A stretch of DNA of 64,000 nt, taken from sequence record NC_018835.1. The stretch is one strand, 5' to 3'. Shown piece by piece: positions 5,712-56,573 of this stretch. The DNA comes from Escherichia phage NJ01. The position numbers were made by a program, and so were the translations under genes. How positions within the stretch are numbered: position 1 is the first letter of the stretch; the number at the start of each line of letters is the position of its first letter. The notes beneath the pieces are model-generated. The model searched no databases. It was not told the DNA's origin and saw only the letters and a list, made by a program, of their open reading frames with translations.

Positions 5712-6688
5712 TTGTGAAGCCTCTTTGATATGTATCAGATAAGGATATAATAGGACACGCTTTCTTACATTGCAACCATCTTTCTAACTTTCTTTCTTTC
5801 TACTAAAAGTAGCGCCATTAAACTTACTAGTCCTATCTTTCGGGCTTAACTTGCTATCAGCGAACGACTCGACTACTTCACAAACGATCAGAACAAGTAA
5901 AGGAAACACCACAACCATGACCATCATTATTAAGATTATCATTTCTATTACTCCAATCACTCAATCAATAGGCTTCAATTTACTACTACTTAACAAGGAA
6001 GACAAGCGACCACGGGTAAACTGTTTCTACTATATAGGACGGGGCATACAACAACCGCATAACAGACCACGGGGAAACATAGCAAGATAATGCGGTAATA
6101 ATATACCACTTAAATAATTGTATAACTCAAACATCAAAAACCGTTCGTACTACGTACTCACGCACGCTGAAAAAGAAAGGAATAAACATCAATAAAAACA
6201 ATCATTCTTAAAAGAATTATTAAAAGAAATATAATCATCCACTTAATTAATACATACATCATTATTGCACTCATAACAATCACTATTGAAACTATTTACA
6301 TTCAAACTATGGGGAGCTGCGACTGTTACATGACGGTACGACGCTTTCGCTGTCGGTATTATATCGCCTTAAACTATTGGTACAGTGAAGACTAGCCTTT
6401 CTCCTACTCTTTAAAGGGGAACTAAATAAACGGGTAGGTAATGAATAGGATGGTATACACGGGGAAAGAATAACGGGGAGTAGGCACGGGGAAAGGTTGG
6501 AACGTTGATAGGGATGTAAAGGCATTGCCAATAACCATTTTTTATTTGAGGACTCCCCCTTTTTAGGAAACACGCTGCGAGCGCCTAGCCCCACTCGGTC
6601 AAATCAGAATTTTAAACAGATATATACATCTTTATTTTTTATAAATCTGTATTTTAAACTCTTATATATAAGCTTAAGAGAGGACTTA

Positions 6689-6850
6689 ATGAATCTAATT
6701 AAAGTATTTAGACGGATGAAGTGTAAGCACAATTACTATCCTCTTCGTAAAGCTTACGGGGATGAAAGAATACATGGTCTCTACCTATCAACATGGGGGT
6801 GTAAGGAATGTGGTAAGTTGAGATTCAGTACATGGGTGGATAGGCCTTAA
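6689..6850 (+). CDS. small zinc-ribbon-like protein (53 aa), below ORF-track size cutoff
   Basis: ATG at 6689 preceded by AGAGAGGA; translation MNLIKVFRRMKCKHNYYPLRKAYGDERIHGLYLSTWGCKECGKLRFSTWVDRP. Confidence 0.35.
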   Translation: MNLIKVFRRMKCKHNYYPLRKAYGDERIHGLYLSTWGCKECGKLRFSTWVDRP

Positions 6851-26762: not shown

Positions 26763-27797
26763 ATGGCGTATGGAATATGGACAAGACCGGTCGGTCCGGG
26801 GCCAGCAGCACCTGCTGATATTTACATTGACAGTGGTAGCACATTCCCTCAGTTAAGAAACAGGGTCAGTGGTAATTTTTCTTTTAATGGTAACACATGT
26901 GATCTACCTATAAGCGGTTGGGATGGAAGTGGTCAGATAGTTGTAGTCCCAACAGGGTCTGTTGTTTGGGAGAGATACATACCTCCTAATGTAACATCTG
27001 ATGTGTATTGGCTAACGGATATATCTGTTATTAATAACTCAACCTTCAGAGTTACTATGGATTATAATGTAAACGGTTGGGTATTTGATATGGCTTTTAA
27101 TGTATATCAAATATGGCCTAGAGCTAACAGGAACTATGGAATCACATTCTCCAACTCTGCTGACTATTTCTCAATCTCTGATTCTGGAGTTGTTGGTCAA
27201 TGTATTTGGGCTTGGGAGGGTGACATAAATGGTGCTCTTCAAATACCAGATATTGGTGGTTTTGATATGAGCCGAGCAACTGTCTACGCGAATTGGAGTA
27301 ACGGCGGAGCAGGTCTGCTATACAACCCATCCAATAGGGTTGTTTATGTGTACCAGAACAGGTCTCATGATAATGGTAACACAAACCAAACAGGGTACAT
27401 TGGTGGTGTTAGGATTGCCGTCTTCTGTGATGGTTCGGGAGTACCAACCCACAATGGAGGTTTAAATATCTTTTCTCCAAATGGGTCTCAGTGTGTTTTT
27501 TCTACATATAGAACCCCTTTTAGTGTTGAGGGGTTTATGCCTATGAGTGGTGGTAACACATCTTTGGCCTATCCAATGATACCTCTATCTTATGGTGCTG
27601 GAGCAATAAGAGGTAAGGCTAGTGGTTGGTATTTTCAACACACAAGATCTCACATGATGAATGGCTCTTCTTTTGGTACAGGTTTCGGAAGGATGATTTA
27701 CTCTTGGAGTAGTCAATATGATTTAGGAGGGGGTGGTGCCCTCGGGTTAAGTATTCCAATATTAGATGCTAGAAAGATATTCAGGAGTATACAATAA
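26763..27797 (+). CDS. tail/structural protein (344 aa)
   Basis: ORF track; Gly/Asn/Ser-rich. Confidence 0.45.
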   Translation: MAYGIWTRPVGPGPAAPADIYIDSGSTFPQLRNRVSGNFSFNGNTCDLPISGWDGSGQIVVVPTGSVVWERYIPPNVTSDVYWLTDISVINNSTFRVTMDYNVNGWVFDMAFNVYQIWPRANRNYGITFSNSADYFSISDSGVVGQCIWAWEGDINGALQIPDIGGFDMSRATVYANWSNGGAGLLYNPSNRVVYVYQNRSHDNGNTNQTGYIGGVRIAVFCDGSGVPTHNGGLNIFSPNGSQCVFSTYRTPFSVEGFMPMSGGNTSLAYPMIPLSYGAGAIRGKASGWYFQHTRSHMMNGSSFGTGFGRMIYSWSSQYDLGGGGALGLSIPILDARKIFRSIQ

Positions 27798-38052: not shown

Positions 38053-38874
38053 TTATTCCCAAGTTTTTTCGAGCCACGACCAATCAAATAGGTCTTCCGG
38101 AGTCTGACCAACAAAGAGCAGCCGAGCATTCTCAAGCATCTTCTCTTCATCTTCAGTATCGAACTTCTTATAATATTCCATTCGTACTATATGATACATG
38201 GTCCACTTGTCTGTAACACCAGCCAATAACTTAGCTGCTGCTTTCTTCCCTATTCCTTGACGTCGAAGCTGAAGCTTACCGCCCCACATAACTTCTTTAC
38301 GTTCTCCACATCCGGGGATATTATCTGTACCATCTCCAACCAACATCTGATAGAAGAAGTTTTGCCATGAAACTAAATCAGATACATAGTGAGGAGGGAC
38401 TTCTTTCTGTCTTTCTCCACAAGCCCAACGGTAGTGCCATCCGGGAGTTATCAACAAATCCTTGTCTCTAGTACAGATGATAGTGTTCTTATCCCTACGT
38501 TGCCTTTCAGCTAGTGCATCATCAGCCTCTCTCCCAAATACATCTATATATTCATACTTACCTTTAATGTAATCACCAACGTTCTGCCAGTGAAAAGGTC
38601 TTTCTCCGGGAGGTCTGTTTGCTTTGTAGTCTTGCTGCTTAGCAACATCAAAACGGAAGTTACCGCCTTCGCTGAAGTAGAACACAACCTTACTGCAACC
38701 TGAGCGAGCAATGATAGTATCTATCTTGTACTGAAGTCGTTCAATCATGAAATTGTAATCAACTGGAACACGTCCTGTGTCAAGAAAGGGATGCTCCTGA
38801 GTAAGAGCACCCACTTCATATCGAAGAACGTCAGCATCCACTATAGCTACTTCAGGGAGCTTAACGTCTTCCAT
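38053..38874 (-). CDS. 5'-3' exonuclease / flap endonuclease (PIN-like)
   Basis: VDADVL, EADDALA, TRDKDLL, GDGTDNIPG acidic clusters typical of T5/T7 5' nucleases. Confidence 0.7.
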   Translation of the reverse strand: MEDVKLPEVAIVDADVLRYEVGALTQEHPFLDTGRVPVDYNFMIERLQYKIDTIIARSGCSKVVFYFSEGGNFRFDVAKQQDYKANRPPGERPFHWQNVGDYIKGKYEYIDVFGREADDALAERQRRDKNTIICTRDKDLLITPGWHYRWACGERQKEVPPHYVSDLVSWQNFFYQMLVGDGTDNIPGCGERKEVMWGGKLQLRRQGIGKKAAAKLLAGVTDKWTMYHIVRMEYYKKFDTEDEEKMLENARLLFVGQTPEDLFDWSWLEKTWE

Positions 38875-39412: not shown

Positions 39413-40696
<1,284 letters not shown>

Positions 40697-40988: not shown

Positions 40989-41735
40989 TTAGAATGGGCT
41001 ATCGTTGTCGTCTTCGTAAGTAGAAGCAGGCTCTCTATCAATCGTAGGGATTGAAGGAGTAGCTTCTTTCTGTTCTGTCTCAGAAGCACGAGTAATTTCA
41101 CGACCAGCCAGAGGCATGTTCTTAGCGTCATTAGCTTGAGTAAGCAGGTTGCGCTGGAACGGGAACATCAGTTGATAGGATGCTACGTTCTCATCGGTTT
41201 CAGCATACGGTTCGAAGAATACCAGAGGACTACGAGCTTCACCAACTGCTGCACGATATTTGGTTGGGATTGGAGAAATGGTTTTGATGGAGTTTTTAAC
41301 TTCACCAGCTTTATTAGTGTAAGAGTTAACCAGAATGTTGACAGGCTGACCTAACAGTACATCCTTAAACCAAGACAGATCACCTTTCAGTGCTTGAATG
41401 CTTGGGTCAATCATCTTGCAGAGATCAAGGATACCAGAGTTCTTAGCTCGTGGGTTTACATCATAGCTCTTGAACTGGCAAGCAGGACGTGGTTCTAATG
41501 CCTTACCATCGGAATCTTTACCAGTAGCATCAACACCAATCAGCTCGAAAGCCAAATCCATACGGAAAGCTGGATTCTTAGGAGTTACTGCTTTGGTCTT
41601 CGGGTCAATCCAAGGGTCACGATTGTGAACACCCAAACCTACTACACGAACAATACGTGCTTCGTACTCGCCATCAGGGATAATGTCGTAGTTGGATTTA
41701 CGAGAAGAAGTTGCGATAGTTGGAATCATAGACAT
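40989..41735 (-). CDS. putative single-stranded DNA-binding protein
   Basis: Acidic C-terminal tail ending EDDNDSPF (SSB/gp2.5-like tail with terminal Phe); first gene after large intergenic region. Confidence 0.45.
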   Translation of the reverse strand: MSMIPTIATSSRKSNYDIIPDGEYEARIVRVVGLGVHNRDPWIDPKTKAVTPKNPAFRMDLAFELIGVDATGKDSDGKALEPRPACQFKSYDVNPRAKNSGILDLCKMIDPSIQALKGDLSWFKDVLLGQPVNILVNSYTNKAGEVKNSIKTISPIPTKYRAAVGEARSPLVFFEPYAETDENVASYQLMFPFQRNLLTQANDAKNMPLAGREITRASETEQKEATPSIPTIDREPASTYEDDNDSPF

Positions 41736-41794
41736 ATTTTAATTTCCTTATTTAATTTGAAAGATTGTTGCTCTCTTTGAGCGGTTATGTATAA

Positions 41795-41803
41795 TATACA
41801 TTA
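41795..41803 (-). promoter_or_regulatory. TAATGTATA promoter-like element (minus strand)
   Basis: + strand TATACATTA; 59 nt upstream of SSB-like start; overlaps a TATAAT hexamer. Confidence 0.4.
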
Positions 41804-41866
41804 CGCTTATACCGATAAGAGTGCTATATAATATAAGTATCTTTGGTAGTAGATATAACACATTAG

Positions 41867-41875
41867 TAATGTATA
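41867..41875 (+). promoter_or_regulatory. TAATGTATA element on + strand, divergent from 41795-41803
   Basis: Exact TAATGTATA; no + strand ORF downstream. Confidence 0.3.
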
Positions 41876-41971
41876 TATTGTATAGCTGATAAAGTTATTG
41901 CAGGCTTGTATATTGGGCAATTCACAGAATCCCTTGCAAGTACCGAAGGGCAGGAGCCACCTGCGAGATAA

Positions 41972-42037
41972 AAATAGAGAATTAAGGAATCCTTGATTTA
42001 GGTTGTAGGGACTCCTAGGGACTTTGATTCTCTATTT
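41972..42037. repeat. 11-bp perfect inverted repeat AAATAGAGAAT / ATTCTCTATTT with 44-nt spacer
   Basis: Arms 41972-41982 and 42027-42037; spacer has secondary near-palindrome GGAATCC. Confidence 0.55.
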
Positions 42038-42151
42038 AAAAGAATATTAATTACTTACTACCTAAATAATTAACTAACTTACTTAAACCAAATTCAAGAA
42101 TAATAGATAAAAAGATTATTCCTAAGAAAGCTAAAAAGTAAAGTATATAAG

Positions 42152-42316
42152 TTACCATTCAAGTAAACCTTTAAAGTTAGATTGTTCTACTATTCGCTGA
42201 TAACGAAGATTAGAATCAGCTTGTTTCTTTAACATCTCATTATATTGGTCTCTGATAGAGTCTTTATAAACTACAGGTTCTTTAAATAATGAGATCTTGT
42301 TCTTTTCTTCTTTCAT
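42152..42316 (-). CDS. hypothetical small protein (start uncertain)
   Basis: Track ORF 42152..42400 overlaps phosphoesterase; internal Met used. Confidence 0.3.
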   Translation of the reverse strand: MKEEKNKISLFKEPVVYKDSIRDQYNEMLKKQADSNLRYQRIVEQSNFKGLLEW

Positions 42317-42785
42317 CGAAAACCTTCCTAATCTCTTGCAGAGAAACAGCTTTATAGTTAATTTGCTCCATTGATGTACAGAAATATCTCCAATCATCAA
42401 TTACATGATTATGTGTATGAGCATAAATATTAAACTTCCCTCTCATTTCATCAGTGTGAATAGGAATGTGAGTTATCCAAAACTCTTTATACTTATAATC
42501 ACCAGAGATTCTACGAAAGACTTTCATCATATCAGGGAGAAGTTCTAACCTATCATGGTTTCCTAAGACCAGATGCTTCTCTCCTTTCACTTCAGCGATA
42601 ATATCAAGGGCATACTTTTCAAATACCCAATCACCAGTAAAGAAGATTTTATCACGTTTGGTTACGTGGTCAAAAGCAGCCAGAATTGCTTTGTCATGTT
42701 CTTCGATGTTTTTAAATTGCTTACGAAAACTACAGATGTTGCGATGGCCTAAGTGACCATCTCCTGCAAAATAAACTTCAGCCAT
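42282..42785 (-). CDS. metallophosphoesterase (calcineurin-like phosphatase)
   Basis: GDGHLG, TGDWV, LGNHD, HTHNH motifs. Confidence 0.65.
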   Translation of the reverse strand: MAEVYFAGDGHLGHRNICSFRKQFKNIEEHDKAILAAFDHVTKRDKIFFTGDWVFEKYALDIIAEVKGEKHLVLGNHDRLELLPDMMKVFRRISGDYKYKEFWITHIPIHTDEMRGKFNIYAHTHNHVIDDWRYFCTSMEQINYKAVSLQEIRKVFDERRKEQDLII

Positions 42786-42794
42786 AAAGACCTC

Positions 42795-43277
42795 TTAAAT
42801 AGTTAATTTGTGATCTTCCTCCGCTCTGTTTCTAACAGAGACGGCTTCCTCTAGGGTTGAGAAAGTTCCTAGGTATTTAGTTTTACCCTTAATGTGGATA
42901 TTGGCTATGTACTTCCCTCTTGAATTGAGGTATACACCCTTAGCCCCTGATGTGTTGTTAGAGTTCAAACCCTTGTTCCAAGAGTTATTCTCGTTGTTAA
43001 CTTCTCTAAGGTTGCCTATGGAATCATTGGAAGGGTTTCGATCAATGTGATCTATTTGATCTTTAGGTAAAACGCCATTAGCAAAATACCAAATAACGTG
43101 GTATCTGTAAATGGCTCTTCCTTTCAATCGAATAAGCACTCTTCCATCCTTTTTTAAAGTTCCTGCCTCATCACCCCGCCTGCATTTTGTTCCGTTGTGA
43201 ATTCTCCAGAACACTTTCCCAGATGATAAATCACAAACAAAGAACTCATCCAGAAGATCTTCTATCATATCATGCAA
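42795..43277 (-). CDS. HNH homing endonuclease with AP2-type DNA-binding domain
   Basis: IDHIDRNPSNDSIGNLREV (HNH) plus GVYLNSRGKYIANIHIKGKTKYLGTFSTLEEA (AP2-like). Confidence 0.6.
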   Translation of the reverse strand: MHDMIEDLLDEFFVCDLSSGKVFWRIHNGTKCRRGDEAGTLKKDGRVLIRLKGRAIYRYHVIWYFANGVLPKDQIDHIDRNPSNDSIGNLREVNNENNSWNKGLNSNNTSGAKGVYLNSRGKYIANIHIKGKTKYLGTFSTLEEAVSVRNRAEEDHKLTI

Positions 43278-45167: not shown

Positions 45168-47012
45168 TTAGTGTGTATGCATCCAGTTAAGTCCAATCTG
45201 ACAATCAGATGCCAGAGGACATTCCATGTTCAAATACTCACCAGCTTTCTTAACGCAAAGCTCAGTGTGCTCTTTGAGTTTCTGTACATCATTACGATTC
45301 ACTGAGAACTGGCCCTCATCGTGCATGTCAATTACCTTCGCACAGCGAACTCCATCTTTCTCAATCCACTTGTTAAGGAACATCATAGCATATTTCATAA
45401 CAACAGCACCAGCGCATTGCAGGAGTGTGTTAAGAGCTTTATGAACCATAACCTTACCAGTGGCATCTCGTCTCATTGTAATCTTACGACCATCAACACC
45501 AATCAAGTATCCTTGAGCAGCTTTCTCTGTCATACGATCAATGAGGATTGCAATACATGGGTTCTCTGCCAAGAATCGTGCTCGCATCACTGAACCTTCG
45601 TCAGCCCCACCACCTACAATTGAACCGAGCTTAGCGTCACCAGCACCATAGTTGAATGCGTAGATAAACGTCTTAGCGTTGTCACGAGTAGGAAGACCAG
45701 CAAGTTTCTGGTTGTGGGAGTGAATATCACCTTCAAGGAGGATATCACGATACATAATAGCAGAAGCTAAACCACGCTCTGCCAGAGCTTTCTTAGCTGG
45801 ATTGTTCTCTTCAATTGCTTCAGCAAGCATATCCCTACACTCTTTAATGAGGTAGTGTGCAAGCATACGCAATTCTAATCCAGAACCATCATACCCTAAG
45901 AATACTTCTTTACCAGCGGGTATGTAATATTTGTAAGCACCTACAGGTTTATCTTTCTTCCCCGGCTTACCTTTCTCGTAAATTACGTTAGTACCTTTTC
46001 GTATATAACAACCATCAGGAACAACGTTAGTAATAACGAAAGGACGAGAGTGATCACCATCTGAGTTACAGTCAGACTCAAACAAACCGCGACACTCATG
46101 ACCAAACAAACCACGGGAGGGAATATTAACCACGATACGATGTTTGAATCGAAAAGTCGGCGTAGCACAGCTGTTAGCTTCTGCCGAAAGTTTACCATCT
46201 TCGCGTTCCTTTGCTATGAGTCCACTGATAAGACCTAGCCTGTGAGCCGCTACAACGCGTCTCTTAAGCAAACTTCCGACACTCCCTAGCTCACCCCCTA
46301 ACCCTTCTTCAAGAGTCTCCTCGAGGTTTGTAGGAGCTGTAGGCCACTTGTTTGAGGTAGCTAGTGCTATCTTAATCTCATCAAAAGTGATAGGTCTACG
46401 TCGGTTAGGATTTAAACCTAAACCAAATACATAAGCCTTCATGTAGTTCTTAGTTTTAAACCTAAAATGCTTCTCTAAGAACTTCCTAATATCAGCGTCA
46501 ACCATCTCGGCTGTCTGCTTCTGTTTAGCATTACCTCTCATCCAAGCTGAATACCACGCTTGGTATGTTCCATACTTTCGCATATCTTTCTTGATTTCAA
46601 AAGTATTCCAAGGTTTCTTTGATACGTTAAACTCTGGAGGAAGAAAACCCTCATCCATAAGGGCTTCTTTAACTCGTGCATCTTTCGATGGGTCAAAGTC
46701 CACGTATTCAACACAGGTGAATGCTCCACCAATGTCTTCTCTCTTAAGACCAACTCTATCACAATAGGCTTGAGGCCACTTCTGTAAAGCTCCAGACTTC
46801 TTAAATGGCTTCATATAAGTAGAGCCATCTAATCTCATCTTAGGTAAGAGAGGAATCAGTTCTTTGTCAATATTAACAATAATCTCTTTAAGGAGGTGAA
46901 CATACCACCGAGCATTTCTTCGGTTGAAACTCACTCCGTGCTTCGCTTGCTTAGAGATTATATCAGCGACAGTCATCTCTGTCAAAAATGGGAGAGCGTC
47001 CGGGTTGCTCAC
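45168..47012 (-). CDS. DNA polymerase, family A (T7 gp5-like), polymerase domain only
   Basis: Motif A YDGSGLELRMLAHY, motif B RDNAKTFIYAFNYGAG, motif C VIDMHDEGQF; no exonuclease motifs in this ORF. Confidence 0.85.
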   Translation of the reverse strand: MSNPDALPFLTEMTVADIISKQAKHGVSFNRRNARWYVHLLKEIIVNIDKELIPLLPKMRLDGSTYMKPFKKSGALQKWPQAYCDRVGLKREDIGGAFTCVEYVDFDPSKDARVKEALMDEGFLPPEFNVSKKPWNTFEIKKDMRKYGTYQAWYSAWMRGNAKQKQTAEMVDADIRKFLEKHFRFKTKNYMKAYVFGLGLNPNRRRPITFDEIKIALATSNKWPTAPTNLEETLEEGLGGELGSVGSLLKRRVVAAHRLGLISGLIAKEREDGKLSAEANSCATPTFRFKHRIVVNIPSRGLFGHECRGLFESDCNSDGDHSRPFVITNVVPDGCYIRKGTNVIYEKGKPGKKDKPVGAYKYYIPAGKEVFLGYDGSGLELRMLAHYLIKECRDMLAEAIEENNPAKKALAERGLASAIMYRDILLEGDIHSHNQKLAGLPTRDNAKTFIYAFNYGAGDAKLGSIVGGGADEGSVMRARFLAENPCIAILIDRMTEKAAQGYLIGVDGRKITMRRDATGKVMVHKALNTLLQCAGAVVMKYAMMFLNKWIEKDGVRCAKVIDMHDEGQFSVNRNDVQKLKEHTELCVKKAGEYLNMECPLASDCQIGLNWMHTH

Positions 47013-47891: not shown

Positions 47892-48143
47892 TTAAACTCC
47901 TTTAGGGAATGGGATGAGGTTTTCTACTGCAACACGGAACTCTTTCTCTACGTTTTTATTCTTATAAGAAATGAATTTACCATCAGCCCCACGGAGGATT
48001 ACGTTAGTACGAGCTGTTTTTGGGTTATGACCAATCTGGTTTGCAATAATATTAGCAATGCCGTGGTTATTGGTAAATTTCCATTTAACCATACGATTGT
48101 TAGACATTACATCAATGATATTTACAGATTTTACAATAGACAT
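47892..48143 (-). CDS. small protein, member of tandem paralog pair
   Basis: LRGADGKFISYKNKNVEKEFRVAVENLIPFPKGV vs LRDSKGKFISYRDARINSEIKSAMESLMPFPKG. Confidence 0.45.
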   Translation of the reverse strand: MSIVKSVNIIDVMSNNRMVKWKFTNNHGIANIIANQIGHNPKTARTNVILRGADGKFISYKNKNVEKEFRVAVENLIPFPKGV

Positions 48144-48177
48144 ATTTATTACCTAAGAAGTTTAATTTGGTTTATAT

Positions 48178-48206
48178 AAAAGAAAAGGCCACCCATTTGG
48201 GTAGCC
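48178..48206 (-). terminator. rho-independent terminator (minus strand)
   Basis: Minus strand GGCTACCC-AAAT-GGGTGGCC followed by TTTTCTTTT. Confidence 0.45.
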
Positions 48207-56018: not shown

Positions 56019-56573
56019 TTACATTTTCCAATATAATGAAGGTGGGTCGTAAGGGTCAAATCCCGTGAGTTCACACAAGTATTTATAAACCTTAACGGTT
56101 AAGTTAACGTCCTGTTCACAGTAAGTAAACATATCTTCAGTGAAAGCATCCCATGCTTCCTCTTGCTCACCGTAGTCTCCTTTAAGTTCCTCTAAGAACT
56201 CACCCCATTGCTTCAAACCATGACCTCTTGGGCCATGTCTAGGGTCACCTTTCGGATACTCAGGACTGTCACCAATACGGTCAGGTTTAAGATATCGACT
56301 AAGACACAAGGTGTCGAAGACGTTAAAACGATAGTCGATCAGATTGGGATACATCTTCTTCAGAGCACAAAGGTCGAAGTCAATAATATTATGACCTACG
56401 AGCACATCAGCTTCTGTAAGTTTACGAATCCCATCTTCAATTTGGTGAGGCCGATAGCCCCACCTTTCACCAGTTTCAACATCGAAGATGTAAATACACC
56501 ACACTTTAGTTATGTCATCGTACAGTGCATTACTCTCGATATCAAATGCAAACACTTTCTTTTTCTTTACCAC
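56019..56573 (-). CDS. 3'-5' proofreading exonuclease, T7 gp5 N-terminal-domain-like, as a separate gene
   Basis: Exo I FDIESNAL, Exo II HNIIDFD, Exo III YCEQDV; collinear with T7 DNAP N-terminus ([15 protein letters not shown]). Confidence 0.8.

Follow-up and report, generated by a model that had tools for sequence, protein, structure and literature searches.

A predicted non-coding RNA gene behind a P68-like gp36 promoter in phiEco32-related phages

The region upstream of gene 40 in Escherichia phage NJ01, analysed here within a 64,000-nucleotide stretch of sequence record NC_018835.1 (the window), probably contains a divergent pair of promoters used by the phage sigma factor gp36. One is the known leftward promoter of gene 40. 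The other faces right, is a twin of the phiEco32 promoter P68, and would serve a self-contained, unannotated gene for a non-coding RNA (ncRNA); we consider this the likely explanation of the region, while keeping real room for doubt. An earlier note on the same DNA had offered three readings without ranking them: a small plus-strand ncRNA starting near 41885, a regulator operator pair, or an origin-like element. We favour the first, with a start predicted at 41882, because it is supported by a P68-type promoter, that start, a fold specific to the plus strand whose pairs change in a compensatory manner, and a conserved block that stops at an inverted repeat. The origin survives as a live rival, and the operator pair has gained no support beyond short palindromes and repeats.

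The window derives from a phiEco32-like phage of Kuravirus type within the Gordonclarkvirinae. Over the 2 kb around the locus it is 96-98% identical to Escherichia phages 172-1, YF01, SU10 and many more, and its intergenic part is 97% identical to that of phiEco32. The latter phage serves as the model of transcription driven by a phage sigma factor, and relatives of it are widely isolated for use in therapy; according to the BASEL study, the molecular biology of these relatives is poorly studied. If our reading is right, the rightward site would be a seventh gp36 promoter, absent from the promoter lists consulted, and the RNA gene would be subfamily-wide and conserved beyond its protein-coding neighbours.

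A known and a predicted gp36 promoter facing in opposite directions

The sequence TAATGTATA is the published promoter element of gp36 (PMC4281155, PMC12276001, PMC4331800), and six gp36 promoters, three middle and three late, have been defined experimentally in phiEco32 (PMC4281155, relaying Pavlova et al. 2012). Six exact copies are present in the window against 0.69 expected, a number reached by none of 100 shuffles; the excess disappears when one mismatch is permitted (22 versus 20 expected). Two of the exact copies lie upstream of gene 40, one on each strand. The other exact or near-exact copies are the remaining listed promoters, bar one inside a late gene.

The plus-strand copy shares further sequence with P68. 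The 14-mer TTGGTAGTAGATAT occurs exactly twice in the 64 kb, once in the -35 region of this site, where it spans -39 to -26 and puts G-37 and A-34 at 41845 and 41848, and once upstream of P68 (53286-53299, minus strand). The spacing is identical, as TTGGTAGTAGATAT sits 10 nt upstream of AAATGTATA at P68 and 10 nt upstream of the plus-strand TAATGTATA. Both segments include bases that gp36 reads at P68. In the open complex of gp79, RNA polymerase, gp36 and P68 seen by cryo-electron microscopy, the N-terminal domain of gp36 reads A-14, A-13, T-12 and G-11, and its C-terminal domain contacts G-37 and the T opposite A-34; mutating the contacted bases abolishes transcription (PMC12276001). With P68 numbering the predicted start is A41882, in the same GT-A context as at P68. 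No gp36 promoter in the window other than P68 is better equipped with these elements than the plus-strand site.

These elements are conserved among relatives. TGGTAGTA is retained in 27/27 distinct homologues, and TGGTA is separated from TAATGTATA by 18 nt in every case. TAATGTATA is kept in 26 of the 27, the remaining one, a metagenome contig, having TAATATATA. The sequence of the spacer differs among lineages while the two blocks and the 18-nt distance hold, and the pattern is therefore that of a two-element promoter. The site is missing from the SU10 promoter table and from the six published promoters as relayed there. A bioinformatic promoter study of 2015 searched only the gene-sense strand of intergenic regions (PMC4331800). 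To judge from secondary sources and keyword searches, both the plus-strand promoter and its RNA appear to be unreported.

The minus-strand copy, which reads TATACATTA on the plus strand and adjoins a plus-strand TATAAT at 41790-41795, has a different status. The SU10 promoter table (S2) gives aagcgtaatgtatactatacataaccgctcaaagagagcaa, 'between CDS37 and CDS38', which is the same site, and by this sequence match the promoter is already known as the middle promoter of gene 40. It has A-34 and lacks G-37. The earlier note had aimed this element at gene 40, as we do, and had also placed the plus-strand element correctly; it recognised neither TAATGTATA as the published gp36 element nor the minus-strand copy as a listed promoter.

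Some further features of these sites may be recorded. The -10 element of the gene-40 promoter belongs to a near-palindrome, GTTATGTATA / TATACATTAC (41784-41804), of which it makes up one half; the symmetry yields a one-mismatch copy TTATGTATA on the plus strand (41785-93) that is not kept in SU7-type phages. The predicted gene-40 transcript has a small 5' hairpin, GCUC-AAAGA-GAGC (41770-41782, minus strand, +7 to +19), extended to 5 bp by one substitution in KBNP1711 and EP335; the distantly related contigs L007-L009 have a different hairpin at this place. Phages of the SDYTW1/EcM-vB1 type carry an insertion of ~150 bp, with an annotated open reading frame (ORF) of 47 aa, between the gene-40 and plus-strand promoters, and their -35 block reads ATGGTAGTATAT (L014 601-830; L046 35-178). 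The sixth exact TAATGTATA in the window (27098-27106, plus strand) lies inside a 344-aa late-strand ORF (26763-27797); upstream of it TTGGGTATTTGATAT resembles the -35 block of P68, 3-4 bp closer, and the site may be an internal late promoter.

The conserved block and the structure of the predicted RNA

The promoter and the ~159 nt that follow it form a single conserved block, in an alignment that covers Kuravirus, Suseptimavirus and Nieuwekanaalvirus. Its left edge is the -35 element, even in those phages that have the 150-bp insertion before the gene-40 promoter. Its right edge is the last base of an inverted repeat, beyond which the gene cassettes vary. The RNA region remains 91-96% identical when compared with phages whose gene 40 is only 62-66% identical at third codon positions. 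The block is present in 97/97 records that carry a close homologue of gene 40, and in all of them it ends at the inverted repeat to which the earlier note had drawn attention.

How far does the block extend beyond this group? We found no match to it by blastn against E. coli complete genomes or in two pattern scans of 185,579 species genomes, and low-stringency blastn against phages gave only chance matches outside the subfamily. Pattern scans of IMG/VR and JGI metagenomes returned kuravirus-like contigs plus chance G+C-rich matches only. Within the window, a search for a paralogous copy matched the shared promoter pieces alone. In more distant relatives that share the gene order (gene 40 - sigma - exonuclease), the space upstream of gene 40 measures only ~0-190 bp; in 7-11, GAP52, Privateer and three IMG/VR contigs (L007-L009) this short gap contains neither the element nor a reversed promoter motif.

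The block has little capacity to encode protein. Downstream of the promoter there is a single plus-strand ORF, of 32 aa with a TTG start (41898-41996), and it is broken by indels in relatives; the two 37-aa ORFs on the minus strand are broken in the same manner. No conserved ORF was found in the block among the aligned relatives, in line with the earlier note, which saw no plus-strand ORF downstream of the promoter. Most GenBank records leave the region unannotated. A few annotate small hypothetical proteins over it (L047 109-288; under H99, H110, H122), which are unconserved and probably spurious.

The composition and folding of the region distinguish the two strands. The RNA region has a G+C content of ~50% against a background of 25-30%, and its plus strand has a positive GC skew, as sense strands of this phage do, although it lies inside a minus-strand gene cluster. 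Folded as a whole, the plus strand gives -45.8 kcal/mol (z -2.3) and the minus strand -35.3 kcal/mol (z -1.3). The difference is clearest at the 5' end, where the hairpin P1 stands flush with the predicted +1. On the plus strand the P1 of the window folds with -3.0 kcal/mol (z -3.6), whereas its minus-strand counterpart does not fold at all (0 kcal/mol). Its arms read ATAGCT/AGCTAT, ATAGTT/AACTAT, AGAGTT/AACTCT or ATAGA/TCTAT in different lineages, so that two pairs have changed on both sides (UA/GC; CG/AU/UA), and a G-U pair occurs in 3 of 14 distinct form-A sequences, the window included.

P1 is followed by a variable central domain, flanked by UUGCA and GAAGG, both of them invariant. In most phages, the one in the window included, this is a hairpin domain of 42 nt (form A). 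An unrelated domain of 64 nt (form B) is found in 8 distinct sequences on three promoter/P1 backgrounds, that is, in three lineages; it has hairpins of its own, which include one compensatory change from UA to CG and a single U-G wobble that would pair on the plus strand only. The domain is closed by CGG/CCG in form B and by GG/CC in form A. Beyond it lies the core, which is invariant in 22 distinct sequences bar one loop base that is C or A. The hairpin P3 within the core is predicted in form B; in form A its CCUGC can instead pair with 41898-41904. Core variants occur in different combinations in different lineages, and recombination within the gene is thereby implied.

The block closes with the inverted repeat AAATAGAGAAT/ATTCTCTATTT, perfect over 11 nt at 41972-41982 and 42027-42037 and 93% complementary over 14 nt. 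The repeat and its 44-nt spacer are where the earlier note had placed them; the spacer contains the quasi-palindromes AAGGAATCCTT and CCTAGG. The repeat exceeds chance: when the 425-bp region was simulated with a first-order Markov model, 2.3% of the simulations gave a perfect inverted repeat of at least 11 nt within 80 nt. On folding, the repeat forms a long 3' hairpin, P4, with -23.5 kcal/mol on the plus strand compared with -18.2 kcal/mol on the minus strand. The two G-U pairs of its stem are invariant and a third is found in one relative; all would be A-C mismatches on the minus strand. Most of the variation in P4, both indels and substitutions, falls at unpaired positions of the RNAalifold consensus or gives G-U pairs.

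Two repeats associated with P4 deserve mention. Both copies of TAGGGACT in its apical part are jointly shortened, to AGGACT/TAGGACT, in ECBP2, TH34, TH43, NC-B, Paul and XT18; these could be two identical protein-binding motifs, or mere indels of a loop and a bulge. There is also a 12-nt inverted repeat with one mismatch (41996-42007 / 42056-42067) that links the apex of P4 to the 3' coding end of gene 41. It would pair inside one spanning transcript of either strand, and is missing where gene 41 is missing.

Table 1. Features of the locus and its surroundings, in window coordinates.
Feature	Position	Strand	Remarks
-35 region TTGGTAGTAGATAT	41843..41856	+	plus-strand promoter; -39 to -26
-10-like element TAATGTATA	41867..41875	+	plus-strand promoter; AATGTA at -14 to -9
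Predicted non-coding RNA	41882..42040	+	~159 nt (form A); ~185 nt in form B relatives
P1, 5'-terminal hairpin	41882..41898	+	AUAGCU-GAUAA-AGUUAU; flush with predicted +1
Variable central domain, form A	41903..41944	+	closed by short helix
Invariant core	41945..41971	+	GAAGG, hairpin P3, A-rich linker GAGAUAAAA
P3	41950-41964	+	GCAGG-AGMCA-CCUGC
P4, inverted repeat as long 3' hairpin	41972..42037	+	16-bp lower stem, 2 G-U pairs
Direct repeat TAGGGACT-CC-TAGGGACT	42006..42023	+	copies at 42006 and 42016; apical part of P4
-10-like element TAATGTATA	41795..41803	-	gp36-dependent middle promoter of gene 40; predicted start A at 41788
Gene 40 homologue	40989..41735	-	ORF, 248 aa (phiEco32 phi32_40); phrog_6599 (unknown function), E=9e-119
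Gene 41 homologue	42051..42158	-	ORF, conserved; 35-aa hydrophobic peptide MVTYILYFLAFLGIIFLSIILEFGLSKLVNYLGSK (phiEco32 phi32_41); convergent with predicted RNA
AT-rich stretch	42011..42190		18-23% G+C; begins within P4 3' arm
Sigma factor gene	39792-40436		near locus
Exonuclease gene	38053-38874		near locus
Family A DNA polymerase gene	45168-47012		near locus
Primase/helicase gene	56567-58357		near locus

We propose the following course of events. At middle times the E. coli RNA polymerase core with gp36 would bind TTGGTA (-39 to -34) and AATGTA (-14 to -9), and with gp79 assisting as at P68 it would initiate at about A41882. The transcript would open with P1, continue through the swappable central hairpin domain into the invariant core, and close with the inverted-repeat hairpin at about 42037-42040. 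Such an RNA should be stable, because both its ends are base-paired. The core is frozen while P1 drifts in a compensatory fashion, and for this reason we suggest that a conserved partner recognises the core by its sequence; this partner is more likely to be a protein than an mRNA seed. On the opposite strand P4 would close the convergent gene-41 unit right before the gene-40 promoter re-initiates. Such an RNA could be a new riboregulator or a component of a ribonucleoprotein, or could provide a handle on the replication origin, and forms A and B would offer a natural allele pair for functional tests. Genome annotations should flag the region as an RNA gene.

The case against an RNA gene and the rival explanations

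Several observations weigh against this proposal. Covariation is limited to P1 and one pair of form B; the other 42 pairs predicted in form A never vary, and therefore neither support nor refute the fold. An RNA conserved for its structure only would not usually have a core that varies so little; a constraint at the level of DNA, or on both strands, fits equally well. Gene flow is, on the evidence of the reassorted variants, a further source of the low diversity; it is not the whole explanation, because the adjacent gene is deeply diverged. The variation in P4 presents a less clean picture when judged on a single-sequence fold. P4 is followed on the plus strand by UUU or UU only (U2-3), and the predicted 3' end is a guess because that strand lacks a canonical terminator; transcription could continue, and the RNA would then be antisense to gene 41 and the genes beyond it. 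No target or partner of the RNA was found; antisense complementarity to the rest of the window is at chance, with 7 matches of 11 nt against 7.1 expected and 23 of 10 nt against 23.7.

Searches for known RNA families gave no match. At a permissive E-value the best Rfam scores are 15-21 bits, compared with gathering thresholds of 43-100, with E of at least 3.8, and ARAGORN found no tRNA or tmRNA. As to the features of Hfq-type small RNAs, the plus strand has no U-tail, and complementary 10- and 11-mers, counted within the window, are at chance. One 11-nt perfect complement of the P4 segment GGAAUCCUUGA lies at 58371-58381 (minus strand), 14-24 nt upstream of the start codon of the primase/helicase gene; it is probably a coincidence involving a Shine-Dalgarno-like sequence, since 11-mers occur at the chance number. 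Three candidates were tried and rejected. A CRISPR-repeat mimic (an RNA anti-CRISPR) found no support in local alignment to E. coli I-E and I-F repeats, as the scores did not exceed those of shuffles. For a CsrA or Shine-Dalgarno sponge, the ~4 GGA motifs in 159 nt are by eye not clearly above chance. A pRNA-like packaging RNA, prompted by the prolate head and the palindromic loops, is without support.

The strongest rival, which we nevertheless hold to be unlikely, is that the region is a transcription-primed origin of replication. The rightward gp36 promoter would make a primer or activator transcript that opens AT-rich DNA downstream or forms an R-loop there, the T7-like primase-helicase and the DNA polymerase would take over, and the frozen sequence would answer to needs of the DNA or of an RNA-DNA hybrid, as with ColE1 RNA II. 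The locus does lie among replication genes (polymerase, primase/helicase, exonuclease), and the promoter faces against all neighbouring genes with no ORF to serve. Its transcript would be G-rich, as the positive GC skew indicates. T7- and T4-type origins are not known to need a long conserved structured transcript, which tells against this reading. Directly downstream comes the stretch of 18-23% G+C, among the lowest in the 64 kb; part of it, however, is coding sequence for a hydrophobic peptide, and it is replaced in some relatives. The near-invariance of the sequence in 97/97 genomes of the subfamily suits a core function, yet the distant syntenic relatives 7-11, GAP52, Privateer and the three IMG/VR contigs live without the element. 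The cumulative GC skew turns where gene orientation switches, at ~6 kb and ~37 kb, and not at this locus.

About equally unlikely is the idea that the RNA itself is an essential, sequence-frozen cofactor of replication, a structured primer or origin RNA that is made by the phage sigma factor and acts like ColE1 RNA II in a T7-like replisome. Were it so, the origin of the Gordonclarkvirinae would have been located, and a phage-sigma promoter would for the first time define an origin.

Punctuation of the leftward operon is a poorer prospect. Here the inverted repeat would be the terminator, an mRNA-stabilising hairpin or an RNase III site of the gene-41 unit, and the rest of the block would be context for the gene-40 promoter, with the plus-strand promoter either weak or acting by antisense or interference to block read-through into gene 40. 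In all arrangements observed, minus-strand genes stop to the right of the hairpin at a distance of 13-35 nt, and the complement of P4 places a hairpin followed by UUUUU (-18.2 kcal/mol, z -3.5) where the convergent gene-41 transcript has its 3' end, with the promoter directly after it; a plus-strand transcript would fully complement the read-through RNA. The hairpin, with its AU-rich stem and 44-nt interior, fails a terminator scan, however: no terminator-like site was found in 41500-42500. Nor does this explanation account for the -35/-10 layout identical to P68 and held at fixed spacing in all relatives, for a P1 that folds on the plus strand only and shows compensatory changes between the hairpin and the promoter, for the 90 nt frozen over the same interval, or for the G-U pairs that turn into A-C mismatches on the minus strand.

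We give very little credence to a pair resembling type I toxin-antitoxin systems, with the 35-aa gene-41 peptide as a membrane toxin and the convergent RNA as its antisense antitoxin, sharing a bidirectional 3' hairpin. The gene for this hydrophobic peptide is convergent with the RNA and only 13 nt away from the hairpin, in which both transcripts would overlap. The RNA block is nearly unchanged, however, in ECBP2, Paul, XT18, Bas86 and Bas92, which do not have gene 41 there; the RNA has no complementarity to the start region of the peptide; and the 12-nt repeat at 41996-42007 / 42056-42067 is same-sense between the two RNAs.

Equally remote is a set of DNA operators, in which the palindromes AAGGAATCCTT and TCCTAGGGA and two copies of TAGGGACT one helical turn apart would bind a phage regulator of the divergent promoters: the short palindromes and a direct repeat with 10-bp spacing are present, both repeat copies have changed jointly in one lineage and the sequence is invariant without compensatory change, but neither promoter is covered by these sites, which stand 110-150 bp downstream of the plus-strand one and ~200 bp from that of gene 40, no candidate regulator was identified, the same indels fall in a loop and a bulge of the plus-strand hairpin in the RNAalifold consensus, and P1 and the promoter are left unexplained.

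The surrounding locus and comparison with known systems

The genes on either side of the predicted RNA, 40 and 41, run leftward on the minus strand. The gap between them is smaller than the 415 bp given in the earlier note: it measures ~315 bp (41736-42050), since the sequence from 42051 to 42158 codes for the gene 41 homologue. This small gene lies outside the conserved block and is missing at the locus in the five phages named above (ECBP2, Paul, XT18, Bas86 and Bas92), which retain the block. The same note had called gene 40 SSB-like (a single-stranded DNA-binding protein). Some GenBank records likewise label the homologue a ssDNA-binding protein, but sequence searches of Pfam and PDB gave no match and lend the candidate role no support, and we regard the label as unconfirmed.

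The AT-rich stretch at the right of the block is one of four places in the 64 kb where the 100-bp windows of lowest G+C cluster (mean 42%, sd 5%). The other extreme stretches lie at 6151-6310, 6591-6730 and 48071-48190 (18-25% G+C), the first two at the minimum of the cumulative GC skew, on the border of divergent gene clusters. Further to the right, an ORF for an HNH homing endonuclease (phrog_99; 42795-43277, minus strand) is confined to 172-1/YF01-like relatives, and the similarity of other phages to the window ends at ~42803, which suggests that this ORF is a mobile insertion.

How does the predicted RNA gene compare with systems already known? The closest relationship is with P68 of phiEco32, with which the plus-strand site shares AATGTA, TTGGTAGTAGATAT with its G-37 and A-34, the spacing and the GT-A start context. 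It differs from the gp36 promoters of phiEco32 in pointing away from every gene, with no ORF behind it, and it is a predicted promoter.

Lytic phages encode small non-coding RNAs, for example RNA C and RNA D of T4, and ncRNAs are reportedly made by PA5oct as well. The RNA predicted here would likewise be short, structured, equipped with its own promoter and intergenic in a virulent phage. It would differ in being driven by a phage sigma factor, in combining a frozen core with a swappable module, and in having no Rfam match and a distribution confined to one subfamily.

The T7 primary origin and oriF and oriG of T4 follow a logic in which transcription from phage promoters primes replication, and RNA II of ColE1 is a structured RNA. 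Our locus likewise has a phage promoter followed by an AT-rich stretch within a T7-like replication module, and the predicted transcript is structured like RNA II. It differs in that the segment that would be transcribed is long, G+C-rich, structured and frozen, and it is missing from distant syntenic relatives.

Convergent type I toxin-antitoxin loci are exemplified by par (Fst, RNAI-RNAII) of pAD1 and by bsrG/SR4. There too the gene for a small hydrophobic peptide and a convergent small RNA meet at a hairpin; the RNA predicted in the phiEco32-like phages, in contrast, persists without the peptide gene.

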